A DNA stretch of 64,000 bases, from assembly GCA_963737905.1 (NCBI GenBank), contig CAVTUQ010000026.1, positions 96,001 through 160,000 of the forward strand. The letters run 5' to 3'. Below are positions 32,597 through 41,053 of this stretch, piece by piece. Below the pieces are notes generated by a model, which did no database searches, was not told the DNA's origin, and worked only from the letters and a program-made list of their open reading frames with translations. Position 1 is the first letter of the stretch. Every line of letters begins with the position of its first letter. The stretch is from an uncultured delta proteobacterium (GTDB lineage: Bacteria; Desulfobacterota; Binatia; UBA9968). The translations under genes and the position numbers were made by a program.

Positions 32597-32929
32597 TTAT
32601 AGGCCTTCGATAGCCTCGTCGCGTGATCCGTAAATGGAAAGAATAGAGGAAAAGCCGGCCAGGTCGAACACCTGCCGAACGTGTTCTTGCAGGCCACACA
32701 AGACAATCTTTCCGTCCGCGGCCTGTAGTCGCTTGGCGGCGAGAAGAAAGACGCGAAGGCCCGAGCTGCTGACATACTCCAACTGGGCAAGATCGACAAC
32801 GAGCCGCTGGCCTCCTGAGTTGATCAGTCCGAGAATTTTATCCTCAAACGTTTTTGCTGTCGTAGCATCGAGTTTCCCCGACAACGCCAATACCACAGCG
32901 TCAGCTTTTCTATCTTCGCTAATGTCCAT
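32597..32929 (-). CDS. STAS anti-sigma factor antagonist (RsbV/SpoIIAA-like)
   Basis: LSGKLDATTA and VDLAQLEYVSSSGLRVFL, with the phospho-acceptor Ser. Confidence 0.95.
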   Translation of the reverse strand: MDISEDRKADAVVLALSGKLDATTAKTFEDKILGLINSGGQRLVVDLAQLEYVSSSGLRVFLLAAKRLQAADGKIVLCGLQEHVRQVFDLAGFSSILSIYGSRDEAIEGL

Positions 32930-33001
32930 GATCTGATGACTCCTACGGCGGAAAATCATTTATCTCCACGATCAGCACCATGGCTTTATGCTCACGCATT
33001 T

Positions 33002-34742
33002 TCATACTGCCTGAAGCGCCGCCAGTCTTATGAGGAATTCAGCGTTGCCGTCTGGTTGGCGGCACTCGAAACCGCCGCCGAGCCACCCGAGGGTTCTGTT
33101 ATAGAGATCGAGCCGGCGCTTGCCAAAAGCAGCCGGATCCATCCGCTCCCGGCTTGAAAGGCGGATGTCCACGTGGCCCGATGACACTCGGTGGCAATTC
33201 TGATGTGCTTCACGCCAATACCGGCCATTCCTTCGATCAAGTTGGTCAGGATATCGTCGAGTCGTTCCGCTCCGACGTTTGCGTTGGTCTGTTGTGCGGT
33301 CGGGCGCAAATTCAAACTCGATATCGCGTAGCGGCGAATGCGCTGCCAACCGGCGCGTGAGGGCCTCGCAAAAAAGATTGGTCATCCTCCACCGCTTCCA
33401 TCAGATCAATTGGATTCCATCACCGTAGTTTCCTTGGTCCGTTTCAGGAGCTCCGCAATCAATTCGTTTACGGCTCCCGGTTGTCTCTGCCTGGAGAAAT
33501 TGAAGACCGCGCACCACGCTCAAGAAGTCCGCCAGTCGTCGCTGGGCCCGATCCAACCAGCGAGAAATCCAGAAGTTGCTGAACATGCTCTGCGGAGAGG
33601 AAGTTGTTGCAGTGACCTGGCGACCTGAACGCCCTTTGAGCACCACGGTCAGTTCGGGTATGGCGCTGGATATTGAACGATTCCACGATGCGGCGAAAGT
33701 CCGAGAGGATGCGGTCGATCTGGTCGATATCCAGGGTCGTGAGAACCCGACTTGCCGCGCTGTCCTTCCTCCAGCAGGGACAGATAGTACGACACCGTGT
33801 ACAGGCGCCCGGAAAAGATCGTAAACAGCGCCGCGGTTTCTTCCAGCAGTTCATCAACGTAGATCTTGAGACGCGCCAATGCGCTCGGCGTCCATGAGTG
33901 GTACGTCGGTCAGATTGGAAGCTTCGGCCTCCATCAACCGGAGCTTCTCCCGCATGCTTTGCGCCGAAACGCAGTAACCGTGCCCGGGGCAACACACGGT
34001 AATGACGGGCGTTTCCAGGAGCCAATCCACATTGTGTGAGCGTTTGCAGAAGATCTGCGTGGTTCCAGCCGTCAAGGCCACACAGCCCAGGGTTCGCCGC
34101 AAAGGGCAAATCACCAAGTATAAGAAACGATCCGACTCGTAACGATATGCTGCAAGGGGAATGGCCGGGAGTGTGATAGATCTCGAGCCGATTGCCGGCA
34201 CCGAGAGGAAGCCATTGGCGTTGCAGCGTTGCGCCATCGGGCATCGCGATCGGCTCAGTGTACAGTTCGATCCGTCCGCCGTCGGCCAATTCGAGTGCGA
34301 GCGGTTCAGACGCCGGGCTTGAGGCGAATAGGATTCCCTCGAATCGCGCAGTGCATATTTCGGGGTTCCATGGGTAGAGATAAGCAACCGTCAGGTTGCG
34401 GTCACGGTGTTTCAGCGCCTCAACTCCCGCCTGGTGTGCGAAACGCTTGATTTCCATACCTGCCGGAAGTTCAAGACTACCCGCCTCCTGTGAGTGGTCT
34501 TGATGGCAATGAGTGAGAAACACGAGGATAGGGCGCCGCGACACCGCCAGGGCGTCGGTTAAAATTCGGCTTATCTGCCGCGTCTGCTCGGCGCTGGCAC
34601 CCGGGTCGACGACTACAAGCGCGTCGGGCGCGGAAAAAATGTAACAATTCGAGGAAACGCAGTTGGCCTTAGGTATGATCGGGAAGATTTCGACGGACGG
34701 GGTGCCAGGAACTTTCTGCCAGACGTTGGCTTCGATCTTCAT
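33002..34742 (-). CDS. MBL-fold metallo-hydrolase with helical region and degenerate HATPase-like C-terminus, several frameshifts
   Basis: THCHQDHS, HTPGHS, LGD and CPGHG motifs. ORF pieces 33854, 33649, 33401, 33028 and 33002 tile into one protein ending ...WLGGGFECRQPDGNAEFLIRL. Confidence 0.78.
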
Positions 34743-34789: not shown

Positions 34790-35104
34790 TCAAGTCTTGA
34801 TATCAATGAATGATGTAAAGCCGGCAAGATTCAATACGTTATAGATATGAAGTGGGACGTTTACAAGTCTCAGGCGCTCGCCGCGTTTTTGCAGCGCCTT
34901 CGCAGCCAGCAGTAAAACACGCAGGCCGGCGCTGCTCATATACGAAACTTCCGCCAGATCGAGCTCTACAGCTCCGGTGGGAGATTCAGCCGCGAGCAAC
35001 AAAGGTTCCTGGAGCTGCAGAGCCGTATCGCTGTCCACTGGCCCCGCGGCATGCAGAACGACCGCCGATTCCAAACGCCGCACCGTGATTTCCAGTTCCT
35101 TCAT
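34790..35104 (-). CDS. STAS anti-sigma factor antagonist
   Basis: GPVDSDTA and LDLAEVSYMSSAGLRVLL motifs. Confidence 0.95.
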   Translation of the reverse strand: MKELEITVRRLESAVVLHAAGPVDSDTALQLQEPLLLAAESPTGAVELDLAEVSYMSSAGLRVLLLAAKALQKRGERLRLVNVPLHIYNVLNLAGFTSFIDIKT

Positions 35105-35331
35105 ATCGTGACTCTTTTGATTATAAAACTTCGCTTCTTGAAGGATAGACTTAAGAAGATCCAGAAACTCCTTTTAGTCGCATTCGATAGCCCGCGATTC
35201 GAATTGCTCAGAGATCGAACCTAAAATAGCCTCTCCTTTGCGGCGGAAAGTACGCCGGCAAAACGGTGTCTGTCAAGTTGAAGACTCCGTTTTCGCACAC
35301 GCTCCGTTGGGGGCTAATTAAGCCGCTTGAG

Positions 35332-36659
35332 TTATGCAAGCTTATTATGAGCTTGATCTCCAGTCCTTCTCTCATCTTTTGTCGTCCCAAAATAAAGCAA
35401 CGCCAGAACCGTGATATCATCCGACTGCGGTGCTGCGCCAGCAAAGTGCCTCACGTCGCTGACCAGGTCGCCGATGATTTGGCGCGGAGAAGAGCTGCGA
35501 TTGCTCGCCAGGAACTGCTCGAGCCGCTGATCGGAGTACAGCGTCTCCCTCGAATCCATCGCCTCGGTGACCCCGTCGGTGTAAAGCAGCAGAGCTTCGC
35601 CAGGGCTCGAGAACCATCCGTCCGGATATGTAGAGCACTCTGTTCCACCAGCCCCAAGAGCTCTTCCGCCGGCGTTTTCCAACGGACTAACGCCGTCGCG
35701 GTGAAGGTAATAGGGCAGATTGTGGCCGCCGTTACTATAATCGACCTGACCCGTGCGGATATTCAAGATGCCGCAAAAAAAGGTCACGAACATACAGGAC
35801 TCGTTATCGCGACAGATCTCGGTATTCAAGCGCGCGAGGATTTCACCCGGAGTGCCGCCGTTCCCGGCGGTGGCTTTGAACAGGGTCTTGGTGACGGCCA
35901 TAAAGAGCGACGCGGGGACTCCCTTGCCGGAGACATCGCCGACGGCAAAGCATAGGTGATCGTCATCGATAAAGAAGAAATCGTAAAAATCCCCTCCCAC
36001 TTCTTTCGCCGGCGCGATCGTGGCGAAAATCTCGAATTCGTGGCGCTTCGGGAAAGGGAGGAAAAATCTTCGGCAGCATGCTCATCTGAATGTCGTGCGC
36101 GAGCTTTAGCGCCTCCTCCATTCTCTCCTTCTCGACATAGGCTTCGATTAAACGGGCCCGCTCGAGCGCCACTGTTATATGAGCACTCAACCCGCCCAAA
36201 AGCGACTCATCAGCTTCATCAAACACTTCTTGGTCTTTCTTGTTCAGCACCTGAATGACGCCGATCAGCCTATCCCCATTGCCGATCAGGGGCAAACAGA
36301 GAATGGAACGCGTGCGGTAGCCGGTCTCCTTGTCGAAATCTGGATCAAACCTGGCATCGGCGTAGGTGTCAGGAATGTTGATCAGTGTACGGGTCTTGGC
36401 CACGGTGTCCGGCAATGCCGACCCCGAGCGGAAGCCGAATTTCCTTTATCTCAAGTCTTTGTGTAGTCTTGCTCCATAGCTCGTCACGAGATTCGTCATA
36501 AAGGAAGAGTGTGGCGCGATCCGCGTCCATGACCTCGGCGGCAACCTTCACGATCACCTGCAACAGGTCATCCAGTCTAATTTCGCTAGCCAGCGCTTTC
36601 GAAACCCTCAAAAGGGCGTTGAGATTTCGCGTCTGACGTTCGCTATCGCTGAATGCCAT
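35332..36659 (-). CDS. GAF + SpoIIE/PP2C phosphatase (RsbU/RsbP-like), frameshifted
   Basis: GAF: ADRATLFLYD and NIPDTYADARFDPDFDKETGYRTRSILCLP. PP2C: GGDFYD, GDVSGKG, YTDGVTEA, QSDDIT. Confidence 0.88.
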
Positions 36660-36841
36660 TGTGCTCCAATTCCAAGATTCTATGGGAGGTCAGATCTGCG
36701 CTATACGCAGCAAGTTTTTACGCAGGGCAAAGCCGCGATAAGAAATCAAGGAAACGTCCGTACCAAATGGTGATTGAAACGAACCCATCGAGAATGAGTC
36801 ATCCACAGAGCCAGGCTTGCTTTGCCTTTACTTCAAATTTT

Positions 36842-36898
36842 CTATTGCTCGTCTCTCGTTATATCAGCGTCAGCTTTTCTATCTTCACTAATGTCCAT
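36842..36898 (-). pseudogene. STAS gene stub, duplicate of the 5' end of 32597-32929
   Basis: MDISEDRKADA followed by unrelated sequence and a stop. The first 34 nt match the full STAS gene except for one base. Confidence 0.8.
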
Positions 36899-36901
36899 GA
36901 T

Positions 36902-39237
36902 CTAAGACTCCTCCGTCTTCTTTTTCATGGTCAGGAGATTTCTCTCTCCATGTCTCTGGTACTCCAAGCTATCCATGAGTTTGCGCACGAGATGGATGCC
37001 CAGTCCACCTATGGTCCTTTCCTCCAGGGGTTTTGTCGTGTCAGGCTCCGGCGCCTCCAGCGGATTGAAGGGTTGGCCGTCGTCTTCGCACTTCGACCCT
37101 AATCTCTGTCGGTTGCACGCTAAGGCTCACCTTAATTTCGTGTTCTCGGTTGTCCGTGTAACCATACGAGATGACGTTGGTGAGAATCTCTTCCAGGGCG
37201 AGATTGAGATCGTGCACAACCTTGGGGGACAGACCATGCCGCTGGCCGAATTCCGTCAATGCCCGATTAACAGTCTCGATCTCTGAAATTTTGTTATTGA
37301 GCTTGATCTCCAGTTCTTCCCTCATTTGCTCTGTCGTCCCAAAATACAGCATCCCAAGAGCCGTAATATCGTCCGACTGCGGCGCTGCGCCGGCAAAATG
37401 CCTTACGTCGCTGACTAGATCGCCGATGATTTGGCGCGGGGAAGAGCTGCGGTTGTTCGCCACGAACTGCGCGAGCCGCTGATCGGAATAAAGCGTCTCG
37501 CTTGAGTCCATCGCCTCGGTGACCCCATCGGTGTAAAGCAGCAGGGCTTCGCCAGGACCCGAGAACCATCCGCCCCGACGCGTAGGGACTTTGCTCCACC
37601 AGTCCCAGAGCTCTTCCGCCGAGGTTTTCCAGTGGTCTGACGCCGTCGTGCTGAAGATAATAAGGCAGATTGTGCCCACCGTTACTATAATCGACCTGAC
37701 CGGTGCGGATATTCAAGATGCCGCAAAAAAAGGTCACGAACATACAGGACTCGTTATCGCGACAGATGTCGGTGTTCAAGCGCGCGAGGATTTCACCCGG
37801 AGTGCGGCCGTTCCCGGCGGTCGCCCGGAACAGGGTCTTAGTGACGGCCATAAAGAGCGATGCCGGTACGCCCTTGCCGGAGACGTCGCCGATGGCAAAA
37901 CATAGATGATCGTCATCGATGAAGAAAAAATCGTAGAGATCCCCTCCCACTTCTTTAGCCGGCACCAAGGTGGCGAAAATATCAAACTCGCTCCGGTCCG
38001 GAAACGGCGGAAAGATCTTCGGCACCATGCTCATCTGGATTTCGTGGGCGATCTTCAACTCGCTTTCGATCCTTTCCTTCGCCGCGGTGGTTTCTTTGAG
38101 ATGTTCGATGGATTCGTTCAATCGCCGTGTCATCTCGTTGAACGAGCCGGCGAGGACGCCAATTTCATTCTTTGCTGGGATATCGATCCTTTGAGTGAAG
38201 TCACCACCCGCGATCCGGCGGGTCATCTCGGTCAAATCAGCAATCGGCCTGGAAATGGTCTTGGCGCCAAAAATGGCAATCACCGACCCGAGCAAAAGCA
38301 CGAGGCCGCTGACGGCCATCGCCAGCCGAGTCTGGTTGCGAATAGCGGCCTGCACGTGATCGGTAGGCAGAGTCACCAGGATCGCCCCGCCTTTTAGTTC
38401 GCCGCCTTCGTCGCCGATGGGAGCCACGACCTTCAGAAAAGATCTTTCCAAAAAACTTTCCGCCCGTCCTGTTTTGGCGAGGCGGATGATGTCTGCCAGC
38501 TCGCTCTCCGTAGGCTCGGGTAGCTTATCGTCTCGGACCCTCTCCGCATAATCCACGGTGATCATGCTCTTGTCGAGGACGCGGATCGCAATGACGCTTC
38601 CTTCGGACACCAGCTGGTTGACCAGACGCGTCAGCCCCATGCGCTGCCGCAGCTGTTGCAGCAGGGTGGCGTGATAGCCCACCTGGACAATGCGCGGCTT
38701 ATCCACCCCTGCCACCCCCACGTACTTGAAAACTTGTGTGTCTATTTCGCGCTGGCGCGCTTCCTGAACGACGCGTTTCGTTTTTCCCGTAAGCAGGGAC
38801 CAGAAAGCATGGGCTTGGGGTTGCTGTTTCGGGTCCGGGCTAAACGTGAAGTCGATTTCGGCGATGTTTCTCAGGTAAGCATGACCTTTCTCGTCGGTAA
38901 TCCAGATTTCGTCCATCACGGTATCGTCGGCGATTTGCTTGAGTCTCCGGTTGATCTCCTTCGGGCTGACTCCCGCCGCTTCCCCCATGGCCACGAGATG
39001 TGCAGCCATCGTCGCCTCCACCACCATCTGTTCGCCGATGGCCGCTTCCACATCGTTCATAACGCCGGCGCCGAAGGCCGCGCTACGGCTCAGTAACCGC
39101 GCGATAACGAGACCCTGGGCCTCGGTTTCAGCCAGCACCGCCTGTCGCGAGCTCCAGCCGAGAACGCCCGCCGTAGCGAGCACCGCAGCGACCAGCAGCA
39201 ACGTCACCATCAAGAGCGTTTGTGTTCTTATCGTCAC
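36902..39237 (-). CDS. Membrane sensor-HAMP-PP2C phosphatase fused to RsbW-type Ser/Thr kinase, frameshifts near 37570 and 37090
   Basis: Two TM helices around a Cache-like domain; HAMP (NEIGVLAGSFNEM); PP2C motifs; then LALEEILTNVISYG, EDDGQPFNP and GGLGIHLVRKLMD. Confidence 0.88.
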
Positions 39238-39343: not shown

Positions 39344-41053
39344 TCAATGATCGAAATGCATTTGGATCCGACACCGGCCATTGATTTTTTCACCTTTGAC
39401 TTTGTCGGCGTATTGGCGCATCAGAAAACCCGAGAGACTAGCGACGGCGTTTTCGTCGGCGAGAAGCGCGTCGTCGGTCGGACGCCTACTGGGAAATTCC
39501 ATCAACTCGCCATCGTAGCGAATATCCATATCGAGATTGAATTCGTCGAAACTGACTTCGGCTTGCACCTTTCCTTTCATGAGATCCAGGGTGGCGGCGG
39601 ACTCGACAAATTCATTGAGGGCCGCCGTCGCTCGCATAATCACATCCCGGCGCGCTCCCCAAAGGGCCCCCTGGGTCTCCATAAATTCAAAAATTTTCTG
39701 AGAACCACCGACACCGGGCGTCAACTCCAGTAGCTGGCGTTTAGTAATGCCGATCCGAAAAATCAGGTTTAAAAGCACGACAAGGACCGTCGAGATAGAC
39801 AGCGACGAAGAAAAGAGAGGCTGGATCAAGTTCGGCACGTCGCGGTACAGTCCGGGGACCATGTCGACGCTCAGGCCGAAGATCAGAGCGATGCCGACGA
39901 CGAAAATCCTGCGCGCGTCGAGCATGCGCGACGTGATCACCTGAATGCCGGCAAGAATCATGTAGCAGGCGACGTAAACGAGAATCGCACCCATCACCGG
40001 ATCGGGCATCACGGCAAAGAAGGCCCCGAGCTTGGGGAGAAAAGCCAGGACGATCATCAAGATGCCGCAGGGAAGGGCGATGGACCGGCTGGTGGCCCCG
40101 GTGGCGAGCGAGAGACCGACGTTGCTGGAGAAGGTGGATTGGCCGATCCCGCCCAGCAGGCCCGCTAGGCCAGTTCCGATGGCGCCGGCGAAAATTCCGC
40201 CGCTGACCGATTGCATGTCGGTGCGCTTCCAATCGGCGTCATTGATTTTCTGGCACAGGGTCAAGTCGCCCACGCTTTTCAAGGTCGAAGCCAGGCTGGC
40301 GATAAGGAATGCGGGCAGAAGAGCGAGATCAAATGACCAGCCCGTTTGAGCCTTTCGCGGCAGGCTAATCATGGGCGCGGCGAGCATCTTTTGCAGCCGT
40401 TCGGTCTCAAAGAGCCCAAAAAAATAAGCGAGCAAATAACCGATCACAAGACCGATCAGCACGGGATATAACTTGAGAGCCCCTTTACCCCAAACGGTCG
40501 GTACGATCATTGCCGCCAACGTCACTGTTGCAACCGTGGCGGCGGTTCCTTGCGGACCCGCGCCACCGGCTTGAAAGCCCAAAAACCTGGGAGAGCCCAG
40601 GGCCACAAGTTCTATTCCGACCATCGTCACCACCAGTCCGGTGACTTCGGGGGGAAAGAGCGGACGTAATCGTGGCAGGACCCGAGCGAGCAGTCCCTCG
40701 AAGAGGCCCGAAATCACCGTCGTGGCAAAGACCGACCGCAGGCCGCCAACCTTGCCAGCCAGAATCGATGCGGAGATGTATGCGGGGCCGCCGCTGATGG
40801 GGCAAAAATATCCGGACCCCACCGCGCTGTTGGGTAAGGATTGCAGAATGGTTGCGATTCCGGACGCAATCATCGACATCCGCAGCACGTTGGTGACTTC
40901 TTCCTGGGTACCGCCGATGGTGGTGACGATCACCACCACCATCACCCAGCCGGCTGTCATGACAAAGACATGCTGGAGCCCCAGTAGAGCCGATGCGGTC
41001 AACGGAGGCTTATCATCGACGCCATAAGTAAGGTTGGCGGGCTTCTTGGCCAT
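39344..41053 (-). CDS. NCS2 (xanthine/uracil) permease with ~130-aa soluble C-terminal RsbW-like domain
   Basis: YGVDDKPP, LGLQHVFVM, FPPEVTG and STFSSNVGL..ATGATSR motifs; hydrophilic tail ending MHFDH. Confidence 0.9.
   Translation of the reverse strand: MAKKPANLTYGVDDKPPLTASALLGLQHVFVMTAGWVMVVVIVTTIGGTQEEVTNVLRMSMIASGIATILQSLPNSAVGSGYFCPISGGPAYISASILAGKVGGLRSVFATTVISGLFEGLLARVLPRLRPLFPPEVTGLVVTMVGIELVALGSPRFLGFQAGGAGPQGTAATVATVTLAAMIVPTVWGKGALKLYPVLIGLVIGYLLAYFFGLFETERLQKMLAAPMISLPRKAQTGWSFDLALLPAFLIASLASTLKSVGDLTLCQKINDADWKRTDMQSVSGGIFAGAIGTGLAGLLGGIGQSTFSSNVGLSLATGATSRSIALPCGILMIVLAFLPKLGAFFAVMPDPVMGAILVYVACYMILAGIQVITSRMLDARRIFVVGIALIFGLSVDMVPGLYRDVPNLIQPLFSSSLSISTVLVVLLNLIFRIGITKRQLLELTPGVGGSQKIFEFMETQGALWGARRDVIMRATAALNEFVESAATLDLMKGKVQAEVSFDEFNLDMDIRYDGELMEFPSRRPTDDALLADENAVASLSGFLMRQYADKVKGEKINGRCRIQMHFDH

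Follow-up and report, generated by a model that had tools for sequence, protein, structure and literature searches.

A Kinase-Dead RsbW-Like Tail on an NCS2-Type Permease as a Candidate Dock for Partner-Switching STAS Proteins

An NCS2-Type Permease with an Additional C-Terminal Domain

The stretch of DNA analyzed here (the window; 64,000 nucleotides, positions 96,001 to 160,000 of contig CAVTUQ010000026.1 from an uncultured delta proteobacterium) carries on its minus strand an intact open reading frame (ORF; 39344..41053) for a 569-residue protein, an NCS2-type permease with a C-terminal RsbW-like pseudo-kinase domain, and it is this C-terminal domain (the tail) and its possible part in a partner switch that concern us. 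The permease is recognized by Pfam Xan_ur_permease (PF00860; residues 22-400, E = 9.8e-60, 202.7 bits against a cut-off of 27) and passes the generic NCS2_1 model NF037981 (60.8 bits, cut-off 40), whereas the xanthine permease model TIGR03173 (PbuX/XanP) spans residues 24-432 at a score below its cut-off (253.1 vs 414.15 bits). Its own genome holds one Xan_ur_permease gene and one copy of the tail, both being this same gene, which has no insertions or deletions (indels) relative to contigs from other public runs.

The transporter domain (residues 1-433; 39755..41053, minus strand) belongs to the 14-transmembrane (14-TM) UraA/UapA type, and its substrate site is altered. In the PDB, UapA and UraA match the permease by profile over residues 11-446, with all TM segments alignable, and a model of the full-length protein has a predicted local distance difference test score (pLDDT) of 86.3. 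What follows, the tail (residues 434-569; 39347..39754, minus strand), can be taken as a real extra domain because the solved UraA chains are 429-437 residues long and the alignment to the permease stops near residue 400-446; that canonical NCS2 permeases have no such domain, as the original prediction for this locus had stated, agrees with these tail-less UraA chains. These last ~135 residues have no Pfam or NCBIfam match, even at E = 1.

Downstream of the permease, and all on the same strand, lies a cluster with the components of a partner switch. The next gene (36902..39237; identified with Pfam on its pieces and with tblastn) joins HAMP and PP2C (SpoIIE) domains to a true kinase of the RsbW type (HATPase_c_2) in which the N, G1, and G2 boxes are present. 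It is followed by a GAF + PP2C phosphatase gene (35332..36659; three ORF fragments with Pfam matches to GAF and SpoIIE), by STAS1 (34790..35104; 104 residues, phospho-acceptor motif YMSSAG, Pfam STAS E = 5.8e-16), by a metallo-beta-lactamase-fold gene (33468..34742), by a 127-residue ORF, and by STAS2 (32597..32959; YVSSSG, Pfam STAS E = 5e-22), the probable start of which is at 32929 (~110 residues). STAS proteins with a phosphorylatable serine are thus found together with PP2C phosphatases and an RsbW-type kinase, and the 2 STAS, 2 PP2C, and 1 kinase genes of the cluster make up between a third and two thirds of the total of each in the 6.7-Mb genome, in which there are 6 STAS matches, 3 PP2C genes, and 3 genes above the HATPase_c_2 cut-off. 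On another contig (G000:C33:33999-37960), PP2C, HATPase_c_2 kinase, and STAS genes form a second partner-switch module of the canonical type, which has no permease.

The Tail Resembles RsbW and SpoIIAB and Has Lost the ATP Site

An AlphaFold2 model of the tail, made from an alignment of 33 tails (A1), has a pLDDT of 94.5 and a predicted template modeling score (pTM) of 0.87 and shows a Bergerat/GHKL fold of the RsbW/SpoIIAB type, with its elements in the RsbW order (b1-a1-a2-b2-b3-loop(lid)-a3-b4-b5). When the model was compared with PDB structures by Foldseek, SpoIIAB came first (1til, 1tid, 1l0o, and 1th8; E = 2e-7 to 8e-7, TM-scores 0.67-0.70), ranked together at the top with RsbW (6m37 and 6m36). 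VIA-align placed UsfX at the head (8ih8_C; Z = 14.3, root-mean-square deviation 2.0, 116 residues aligned), followed by SpoIIAB (1th8_A; Z = 13.5), the RsbW domain of Rv1364c (3ke6_B; Z = 13.3), RsbW (6m37_C; Z = 13.1), and SiaB (6kko_B; Z = 10.7), with a clear drop to the ATP domains of histidine kinases (Z ≤ 8.5). A SpoIIAB or HATPase_c_2 structure at the top is what the original prediction, made from the letters of the window alone, had named as the result that would support it.

The same relationship is found with sequence profiles. An hhalign comparison of the 33 tails with 14 stand-alone RsbW-like kinases that adjoin family members (alignment A3) gives a probability of 96.1 and E = 2.9e-9 over 130 columns, and it reproduces all three pairings by which the tail had previously been judged, by eye, to be colinear with an RsbW-like kinase: RATAALNEFVESA (residues 474-486; 39596..39634) is paired with DLNLALEEI.TN., MDIRYDG (residues 509-515; 39509..39529) with VEV.DDG, and ASLSGFLMRQYAD with GGLGIHLVRK..D, residues 538-552 of the tail (39398..39442) being ASLSGFLMRQYADKV. 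Pfam HATPase_c_2 (PF13581) gives weak matches in 6 of the 33 tails (best E = 4.3e-4) and none in the window's own tail at E up to 1, an HMM (hidden Markov model) built from the neighboring kinases picks out, among 5,756 ORFs searched, three permease tails, each matched from end to end (E = 2.7e-4 to 3.5e-3), and in a language-model protein atlas the top cluster for the tail has 15% HATPase_c_2 members. A sequence-profile search of the tail against PDB chains returned coronavirus spike heptad constructs and designed repeat proteins, and no kinase; these were rejected as matches of helical composition. A weak stand-alone match to the tail profile (G378:C25; E = 1.4e-6) turned out to be a true RsbW-like kinase of 142 residues (locus L029) and was put into A3.

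Residue counts were made over 128 full-length family members, that is, the window's permease, 90 ORFs of at least 540 residues from other loci, and 37 database representatives. In the 14 kinases of A3, E46, N50, D81, F86, G106, G107, G109, D118, and N129 are invariant. In the tails, the place of the N-box Asn is occupied by Ser in the window (S485) and, across the 128 members, most commonly by Ser (39), Ala (38), Leu (16), Thr (13), and Val (8), with no Asn among these five commonest residues; the G1 Asp is replaced by Tyr in 124 of 128 (Y513 in the window); and the G2 glycines have given way to Ala/Ser/Leu/Ser (A-S-L-S in the window). The loss of the N-box Asn and of the GGLG G2 box, which had been noticed in this one protein, is therefore the same throughout the family. 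Kept are E481 at the general-base position (110/128), G515, which is the first glycine and the sole surviving residue of the G1 box (126/128), and D550, the equivalent of kinase D118 (115/128). The tail also has near-invariant residues of its own, namely W465, G466, and R468 (W465-G-A-R468), F502-D503-E504, Y513, P525, and the last residue, H569. Judged by these counts, ATP binding by the tail is very unlikely, and the pattern of conservation indicates that the tail is under strong selection for something other than ATP use and that it is a pseudo-kinase family-wide, not through decay in its own genome. We regard the RsbW-like fold and the pseudo-kinase reading of the tail as practically certain.

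Distribution of the Family and Linkage to Partner-Switch Genes

A word-indexed search with residues 425-569 returned 337 clusters at 90% identity; among the 120 listed, identity to the tail is 77-99% and the length is mostly 567-573 residues. An exhaustive HMMER search with the tail alone yielded 587 representatives at 50% identity with E up to 1e-3 (292 with E up to 1e-10), and among the 150 representatives listed, all full-length ones (37, of at least 540 residues) match at their C-terminal end, the shorter matches being metagenomic fragments. At least nine HMMER representatives of exactly 112 residues start at an internal Met of the tail (METQG...; query residue 29); they are probably gene calls on contig fragments, or they may represent a free-standing form of the tail. 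In its own phylum, the tail is present in only 14 of 401 genomes searched. The loci found belong to Binatia-like and Thermodesulfobacteriota metagenome-assembled genomes (MAGs), Smithella, Acidobacteriota, Armatimonadota, Cloacimonadota, Ignavibacteriales, Elusimicrobia, Sumerlaeota, Burkholderiales, and Alkalilimnicola and, among archaea, to Methanotrichaceae and Methanosarcinales (including Methanothrix).

Gene neighborhoods were compared at 91 loci with a full permease ORF (12 from the own-phylum search and 79 from the best 80 of a scan of species-representative genomes; L068, in which the ORF runs off the contig, was left out). Neighbor genes were called with local HMMs seeded from the window, L017, and L018, with Pfam confirmation on 162 neighbor proteins, and the counts cover the fetched flanks of each permease gene. 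A STAS gene is found near the permease in 42 of the 91 loci, a PP2C gene in 37, a true RsbW-like kinase in 19, and any of the three in 43; in 40 loci, a STAS or PP2C gene lies on the same strand within 3 kb. The linkage is seen in Methanotrichaceae, Smithella, Armatimonadota, Cloacimonadota, Ignavibacteriales, Elusimicrobia, Sumerlaeota, Burkholderiales, and others, and the gene order varies: STAS, 5TMR-LYT-PP2C, permease in Methanothrix (14 loci); 5TMR-LYT-PP2C, STAS, permease in L017, L018, and L045, where the end of the STAS gene and the start of the permease gene share 4 bases in the first two; permease, STAS, kinase, ..., PP2C in L040, L105, L093, and L096; and permease, sensor-PP2C-kinase fusion, STAS in L031, L039, L074, L075, and L082. 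The PP2Cs at these loci carry input modules (HAMP, GAF, 5TMR-LYT, dCache/Cache, or receiver), and minimal operons consist of PP2C, STAS, and permease only. No sigma-factor family was detected among 101 + 61 neighbor proteins from 22 loci, part of each locus being scanned. Two proteins with HATPase_c_2 matches that looked like possible further fusions (G296:C21 and G240:C8; 593 and 603 residues) are ordinary PAS/HisKA histidine kinases.

A Modeled Complex of the Tail with STAS2

All 30 of the STAS proteins that were aligned keep the pattern D..L.Y(I/V/M)SS.G.R, with S64, S65, and R69 invariant, and by this motif they are of the phosphorylatable antagonist type. In a tree of 57 STAS domains, STAS2 falls into a well-supported group with those of L031, L032, L033, L039, L107, and L110, in which the corresponding genes adjoin the permease or the kinase, and STAS1 is of a divergent type, for which L031 alone of the loci examined has a close relative.

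We modeled the complex of the tail (A1) with STAS2 residues 11-120 (alignment A4) in three runs and with three controls. The interaction prediction score from aligned errors (ipSAE) was 0.84, 0.82, and 0.83 in the three runs and 0.00 in all three controls; a mark of 0.83 is reached by 116 of 157 solved complexes and by 2 of 215 mismatched pairs, counts that are only a rough guide here because our own alignments were used. The runs share at least 94% of their contacts, and the partner pLDDT is at least 90. In the modeled interface, S64 and S65 of the STAS protein lie against tail residues 477, 480, 481, and 484 of helix a2 and 537, 540, 541, and 544 of helix a3, that is, at the dead nucleotide pocket, the same site as in the kinase complexes. 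Of the contact residues, E481, L540, S/A541, and F/Y543 are equally conserved in loci with and without linked partner-switch genes. The model supports binding, short of demonstrating it, and we consider docking of STAS proteins on the tail likely.

Proposed Role of the Permease as an Output of the Partner Switch

These observations lead us to propose that the kinase-dead RsbW/SpoIIAB-like tail is a membrane-anchored dock for the STAS protein of the adjoining partner switch and that the permease is an output of that switch, a reading that we hold to be on balance probable. A catalytically dead STAS-docking domain had been put forward in the original prediction, and the idea has gained support from the loss of the ATP motifs, from the linkage to STAS and PP2C genes in 43 of the 91 loci, and from a complex model that passes its controls. 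In the scheme we envisage, the true RsbW-type kinase, which in the window is fused to the HAMP-PP2C neighbor, would phosphorylate the conserved serine of the STAS protein, and the sensor-bearing PP2C phosphatases would take the phosphate off on a signal. Unphosphorylated STAS would then bind the tail, with its serine loop on helices a2 (E481, E484, and S485) and a3 (L540 and S541), where a kinase would hold ATP; a phosphate on the serine would face the acidic residues E481 and E484, favoring phospho-dependent release. Binding could alter transport through the conserved pole of the tail, which by the topology of the chain should face the membrane domain. Four features, namely the link to TM14, the a1-a2 loop (WGAR), the b2-b3 hairpin (FDE), and the C-terminal His, are expected at this one pole, away from the STAS site, because of the order of the secondary-structure elements.

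Two family-specific cytoplasmic motifs of the transporter domain, neither of them present in UapA, are candidate contacts for this pole. The first follows TM8 and runs from C267 to M280, with one variable place before D279 (QKINDADWKRPDM at 268-280), and the second, R376..D379..R381, follows TM12; contact of the pole with both loops would bridge the two halves of the carrier. We infer that binding takes place in cells, that phosphorylation blocks it, that it has an effect on transport, and that the signal runs in this direction.

Several observations weigh against this proposal. No STAS, PP2C, or kinase gene is present in the fetched flanks of 48 of the 91 loci, including the entire 599-residue Acidoferrales-type clade, and in the permease's own phylum only 2 of 12 loci show the linkage. 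Many of the loci are close kin (~14 from Methanothrix and ~20 from Acidoferrales), and the independent events are accordingly fewer than the counts suggest. The passing score of the complex model may reflect likeness to the solved SpoIIAB-SpoIIAA and RsbW-RsbV complexes, and the most strongly conserved residues of the tail (WGAR, FDE, Y513, and H569) lie outside the modeled STAS interface. Finally, 18 loci carry STAS and PP2C genes but no kinase gene nearby.

Both the loci without partner-switch genes and the position of the invariant residues would be accounted for if the tail were a kinase relic with a purely structural function, stabilizing the permease dimer or its folding in the manner of the cytoplasmic domains of other 7+7 transporters, while the partner-switch genes act elsewhere. 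SpoIIAB-type domains are dimeric and NCS2 permeases work as dimers, which fits such a role. Against it stand the recurrence of STAS and PP2C linkage in many phyla, often as overlapping or abutting genes, and the density of STAS genes, since 6 of them in 6.7 Mb correspond to an estimated ~0.016 per 17.7-kb stretch; the complex model also passes its controls, with E481 and L540 conserved in linked and unlinked loci alike. We therefore consider a structural function alone to be distinctly unlikely.

The 18 kinase-less loci could also mean that the tail is itself an active kinase of a non-canonical kind, one that binds nucleotide in an unusual way and phosphorylates the STAS protein, as might be thought from the conservation of E481, the general-base position, and of G515. 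With the N-box Asn, the Mg-ATP ligand, missing from the five commonest residues at its place, Tyr for the adenine-binding Asp in nearly all members, and the G2 glycines gone, this is extremely improbable. Moreover, stand-alone RsbW kinases are encoded elsewhere in all five genomes checked, three of which hold kinase-less loci; a Methanothrix chromosome, for example, has a complete PAS-PP2C/STAS/kinase module.

The direction of signaling could also be the reverse of that in our scheme, with the permease as a sensor (a transceptor, the word used in the original prediction) whose transport cycle shifts the affinity of the tail for STAS, the availability of substrate thereby determining the amount of STAS left for the true kinase or for other targets. 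The fold, the synteny, and the docking evidence speak for this as they do for an output role, the tail is joined directly to TM14, and the loop motif at 268-280 could pass on the conformational state of the carrier. Yet the associated PP2Cs already bear sensor domains, and the minimal PP2C-STAS-permease operons encode no output besides the permease, making a sensing role unlikely. The permease as output of the switch is favored because the PP2Cs carry the sensors, no sigma-factor family appears among the neighbors scanned, the minimal operons comprise PP2C, STAS, and permease, and archaea, in which the family also occurs, have no sigma factors.

At some loci, the STAS domain is part of a larger protein. 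Directly upstream of the permease in L036 (2027-4159), L037 (722-2857), and L038 (235-2364) is a gene for a 710-residue fusion of NHase_alpha-like, STAS, pyridoxal phosphate (PLP)-enzyme (PALP), and ACT domains; L098 (1195-3189) has a STAS + PLP decarboxylase fusion and L096 (4591-7824) a fusion of solute-binding domains with STAS, both adjoining the permease; and in L032, L040, and L076 the STAS domain is joined to an unassigned domain of ~280 residues. The large fusions of L036, L037, L038, L098, and L096 could be enzymes that carry a STAS tag and dock at this site too. The tail might then be a docking platform that recruits any STAS-bearing protein, STAS-enzyme fusions included, with the imported substrate handed over to the enzyme and single-domain STAS proteins competing or regulating; the fusions in L036, L037, L038, L098, L032, L040, and L076 are what such a platform would call for, but they amount to just 7 of the 91 loci, with none in the window, and we think this very improbable. 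Returning to the switch-output proposal, one may extend it tentatively to the family as a whole, such that the tail would be a widespread wiring of partner switches to a transporter in Bacteria and Archaea, with STAS proteins or STAS-tagged PLP enzymes gating transport or building a transport-metabolism complex; in this breadth, the idea is possible though doubtful.

The Substrate Site of the Transporter

The NAT signature, [Q/E/P]-N-x-G-x-x-x-x-T-[R/K/G], lies in TM10. The corresponding motif in the window is S310-N-V-G-L-S-L-A-T-G, which fits at all places but the first, and this first place (S310; codon 40123..40125) is Ser in 102 of the 128 family members. In TM8, profile alignment with UapA puts "LK" of the family opposite "CE" of UapA; the Lys (K259; codon 40276..40278), present in 108 of 128 members, is at the position that we take to be that of the substrate-binding Glu of NAT transporters (UapA E356, UraA E241). 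The window's permease thus has neither the canonical TM8 Glu nor a canonical first residue of the NAT motif, and on these alignments both classical substrate-binding positions are altered throughout the family: TM8 has Lys in place of Glu, and the NAT motif has Ser in place of Gln/Glu/Pro. Because of these two changes, and because the TIGR03173 score is far below its cut-off, the label "xanthine permease XanP" that many database members bear is doubtful and probably an over-call. The altered site points to a substrate different from the xanthine or uracil of the annotations; the neighboring genes that were scanned give no consistent hint at its nature.

Relation to Known Systems

With the anti-sigma factors RsbW, SpoIIAB, and UsfX, the tail shares its fold, the order of its elements, homology at the profile level, and the modeled docking of the STAS serine loop. 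These are free proteins of 140 residues, however, whereas the tail is fused to a 14-TM permease, lacks the N-box Asn, the G1 Asp, and the G2 glycines, and has its own signature (WGAR, FDE, and the terminal His); nor was a sigma-factor gene found in the permease neighborhoods scanned. An experimentally based parallel for a kinase-dead member is the mycobacterial SigF switch. In M. smegmatis, the N, G1, and G2 motifs are retained in RsbW2, and it is this protein that phosphorylates RsfB, whereas RsbW1 (the UsfX homolog) and RsbW3 do not (PMC7693655). There, as proposed here, a kinase-dead RsbW binds a STAS antagonist that a separate RsbW phosphorylates, and a PP2C-type phosphatase is proposed for the reset (PMC7693655). 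RsbW1 is also the protein whose homolog UsfX is the best structural match of the tail. In the SigF switch, however, the kinase-dead protein holds a sigma factor, whereas in the present family a transporter carries it as a tail, in archaea as well as in bacteria.

SLC26/SulP transporters and NCS2 permeases share a 7+7 inverted-repeat architecture. Both the SLC26/SulP proteins and the permease described here have a regulatory or putatively regulatory cytoplasmic domain behind the last TM helix, and in both, transport is or would be tied to STAS; for SLC26/SulP transporters, the association with STAS is on record (PMC8256260). The difference is that SLC26/SulP transporters have the STAS domain in the same chain, whereas in our model the chain bears a STAS-binding kinase fold and the STAS protein would act in trans under control by phosphorylation. 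Canonical NCS2/NAT proteins (UraA, UapA, XanQ, and SVCT) resemble the permease in matching PF00860 above the cut-off and in their alignable TM segments but differ in that the solved UraA chains have no tail, and in that the present family has Lys for the TM8 Glu and Ser at the start of the NAT motif. In SiaABCD, the unphosphorylated small protein acts on a non-sigma target, a diguanylate cyclase. This system, with its SiaB kinase and SiaC, is thus similar in having a non-sigma output, and SiaB also matches the tail in structure (at the Z-score given above); its diguanylate cyclase target is devoid of a kinase fold, whereas the target proposed here is a kinase homolog fused to a transporter.

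Our literature searches, in which subscription journals were not covered, brought up no NCS2 permease described as having a kinase-like or STAS-binding tail, and the words "C-terminal," "STAS," and "fused" are absent from the accessible passages of the NAT/NCS2-hound classification paper (PMC6308229). Non-sigma outputs of partner switches and kinase-dead RsbW proteins are both known; what is new is a kinase-dead RsbW domain fused to a transporter, found across Bacteria and Archaea. Partner-switching modules are common outside Firmicutes, where their outputs are mostly unknown, and in archaea they have no obvious target; a transporter with its own kinase-dead RsbW domain is a concrete and purifiable candidate for one. 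The tail also gives NCS2-type carriers a putatively regulatory cytoplasmic domain that canonical members lack. If the tentative family-wide reading given above is right, the built-in STAS domain of SLC26/SulP transporters, which has long been puzzling, would have a trans-acting counterpart in the tail, and archaea would possess a sigma-independent partner-switch output. The family occurs in environmentally important groups, including soil Binatia-like bacteria, Acidobacteriota, syntrophs, and Methanothrix.

Assembly Breaks and Minor Features of the Cluster

The kinase domain of the neighboring gene, which the original prediction had called intact, is not so in the assembly: VEVEDDG crosses a frameshift, and the ORF reads VEVRRRR. 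Comparison by tblastn with the intact 775-residue ortholog from L031 shows that two frameshifts split the HAMP-PP2C-kinase gene into three frames, whereas the orthologs in L031 and L039 are intact by Pfam (775-776 residues). The GAF-PP2C gene is frameshifted too. Contigs from four other public runs have one base fewer at 37087 (two runs) and at 37554 (four of four runs) in the kinase gene, and at 36053 (three runs) and 36407 (two runs) in the GAF-PP2C gene. Because the other runs lack one base exactly at the frameshift sites, the four breaks look like one-base insertions and are most likely assembly errors; other genes of the contig may be similarly affected by indel errors.

The GAF-PP2C gene is not found at this position in some related populations or in L031. 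Contigs of two runs join 35135 directly to 36936/36949, L031 has the same shorter gene order, and the C-terminal half of the GAF-PP2C protein is ~72% identical to the neighboring PP2C; the stretch (35135..36950) could have arisen by duplication, by insertion, or through a mis-join. Right after the kinase stop, at 36866..36901 on the minus strand, the frame reads MDISEDRKADA, the first 11 residues of STAS2, and then breaks off. STAS2 itself is encoded 4 kb further on (from 32929 downward), and the fragment seems to be what is left of a STAS gene that formerly stood behind the kinase, as one does in L039. Metallo-beta-lactamase-fold genes recur in clusters of the permease with partner-switch genes, being found in the window and in L031 (12567-13985), L043 (3643-5352), and L093 (12575-13516); these clusters come from a bacterium-like MAG group and a Methanosarcinales archaeon.

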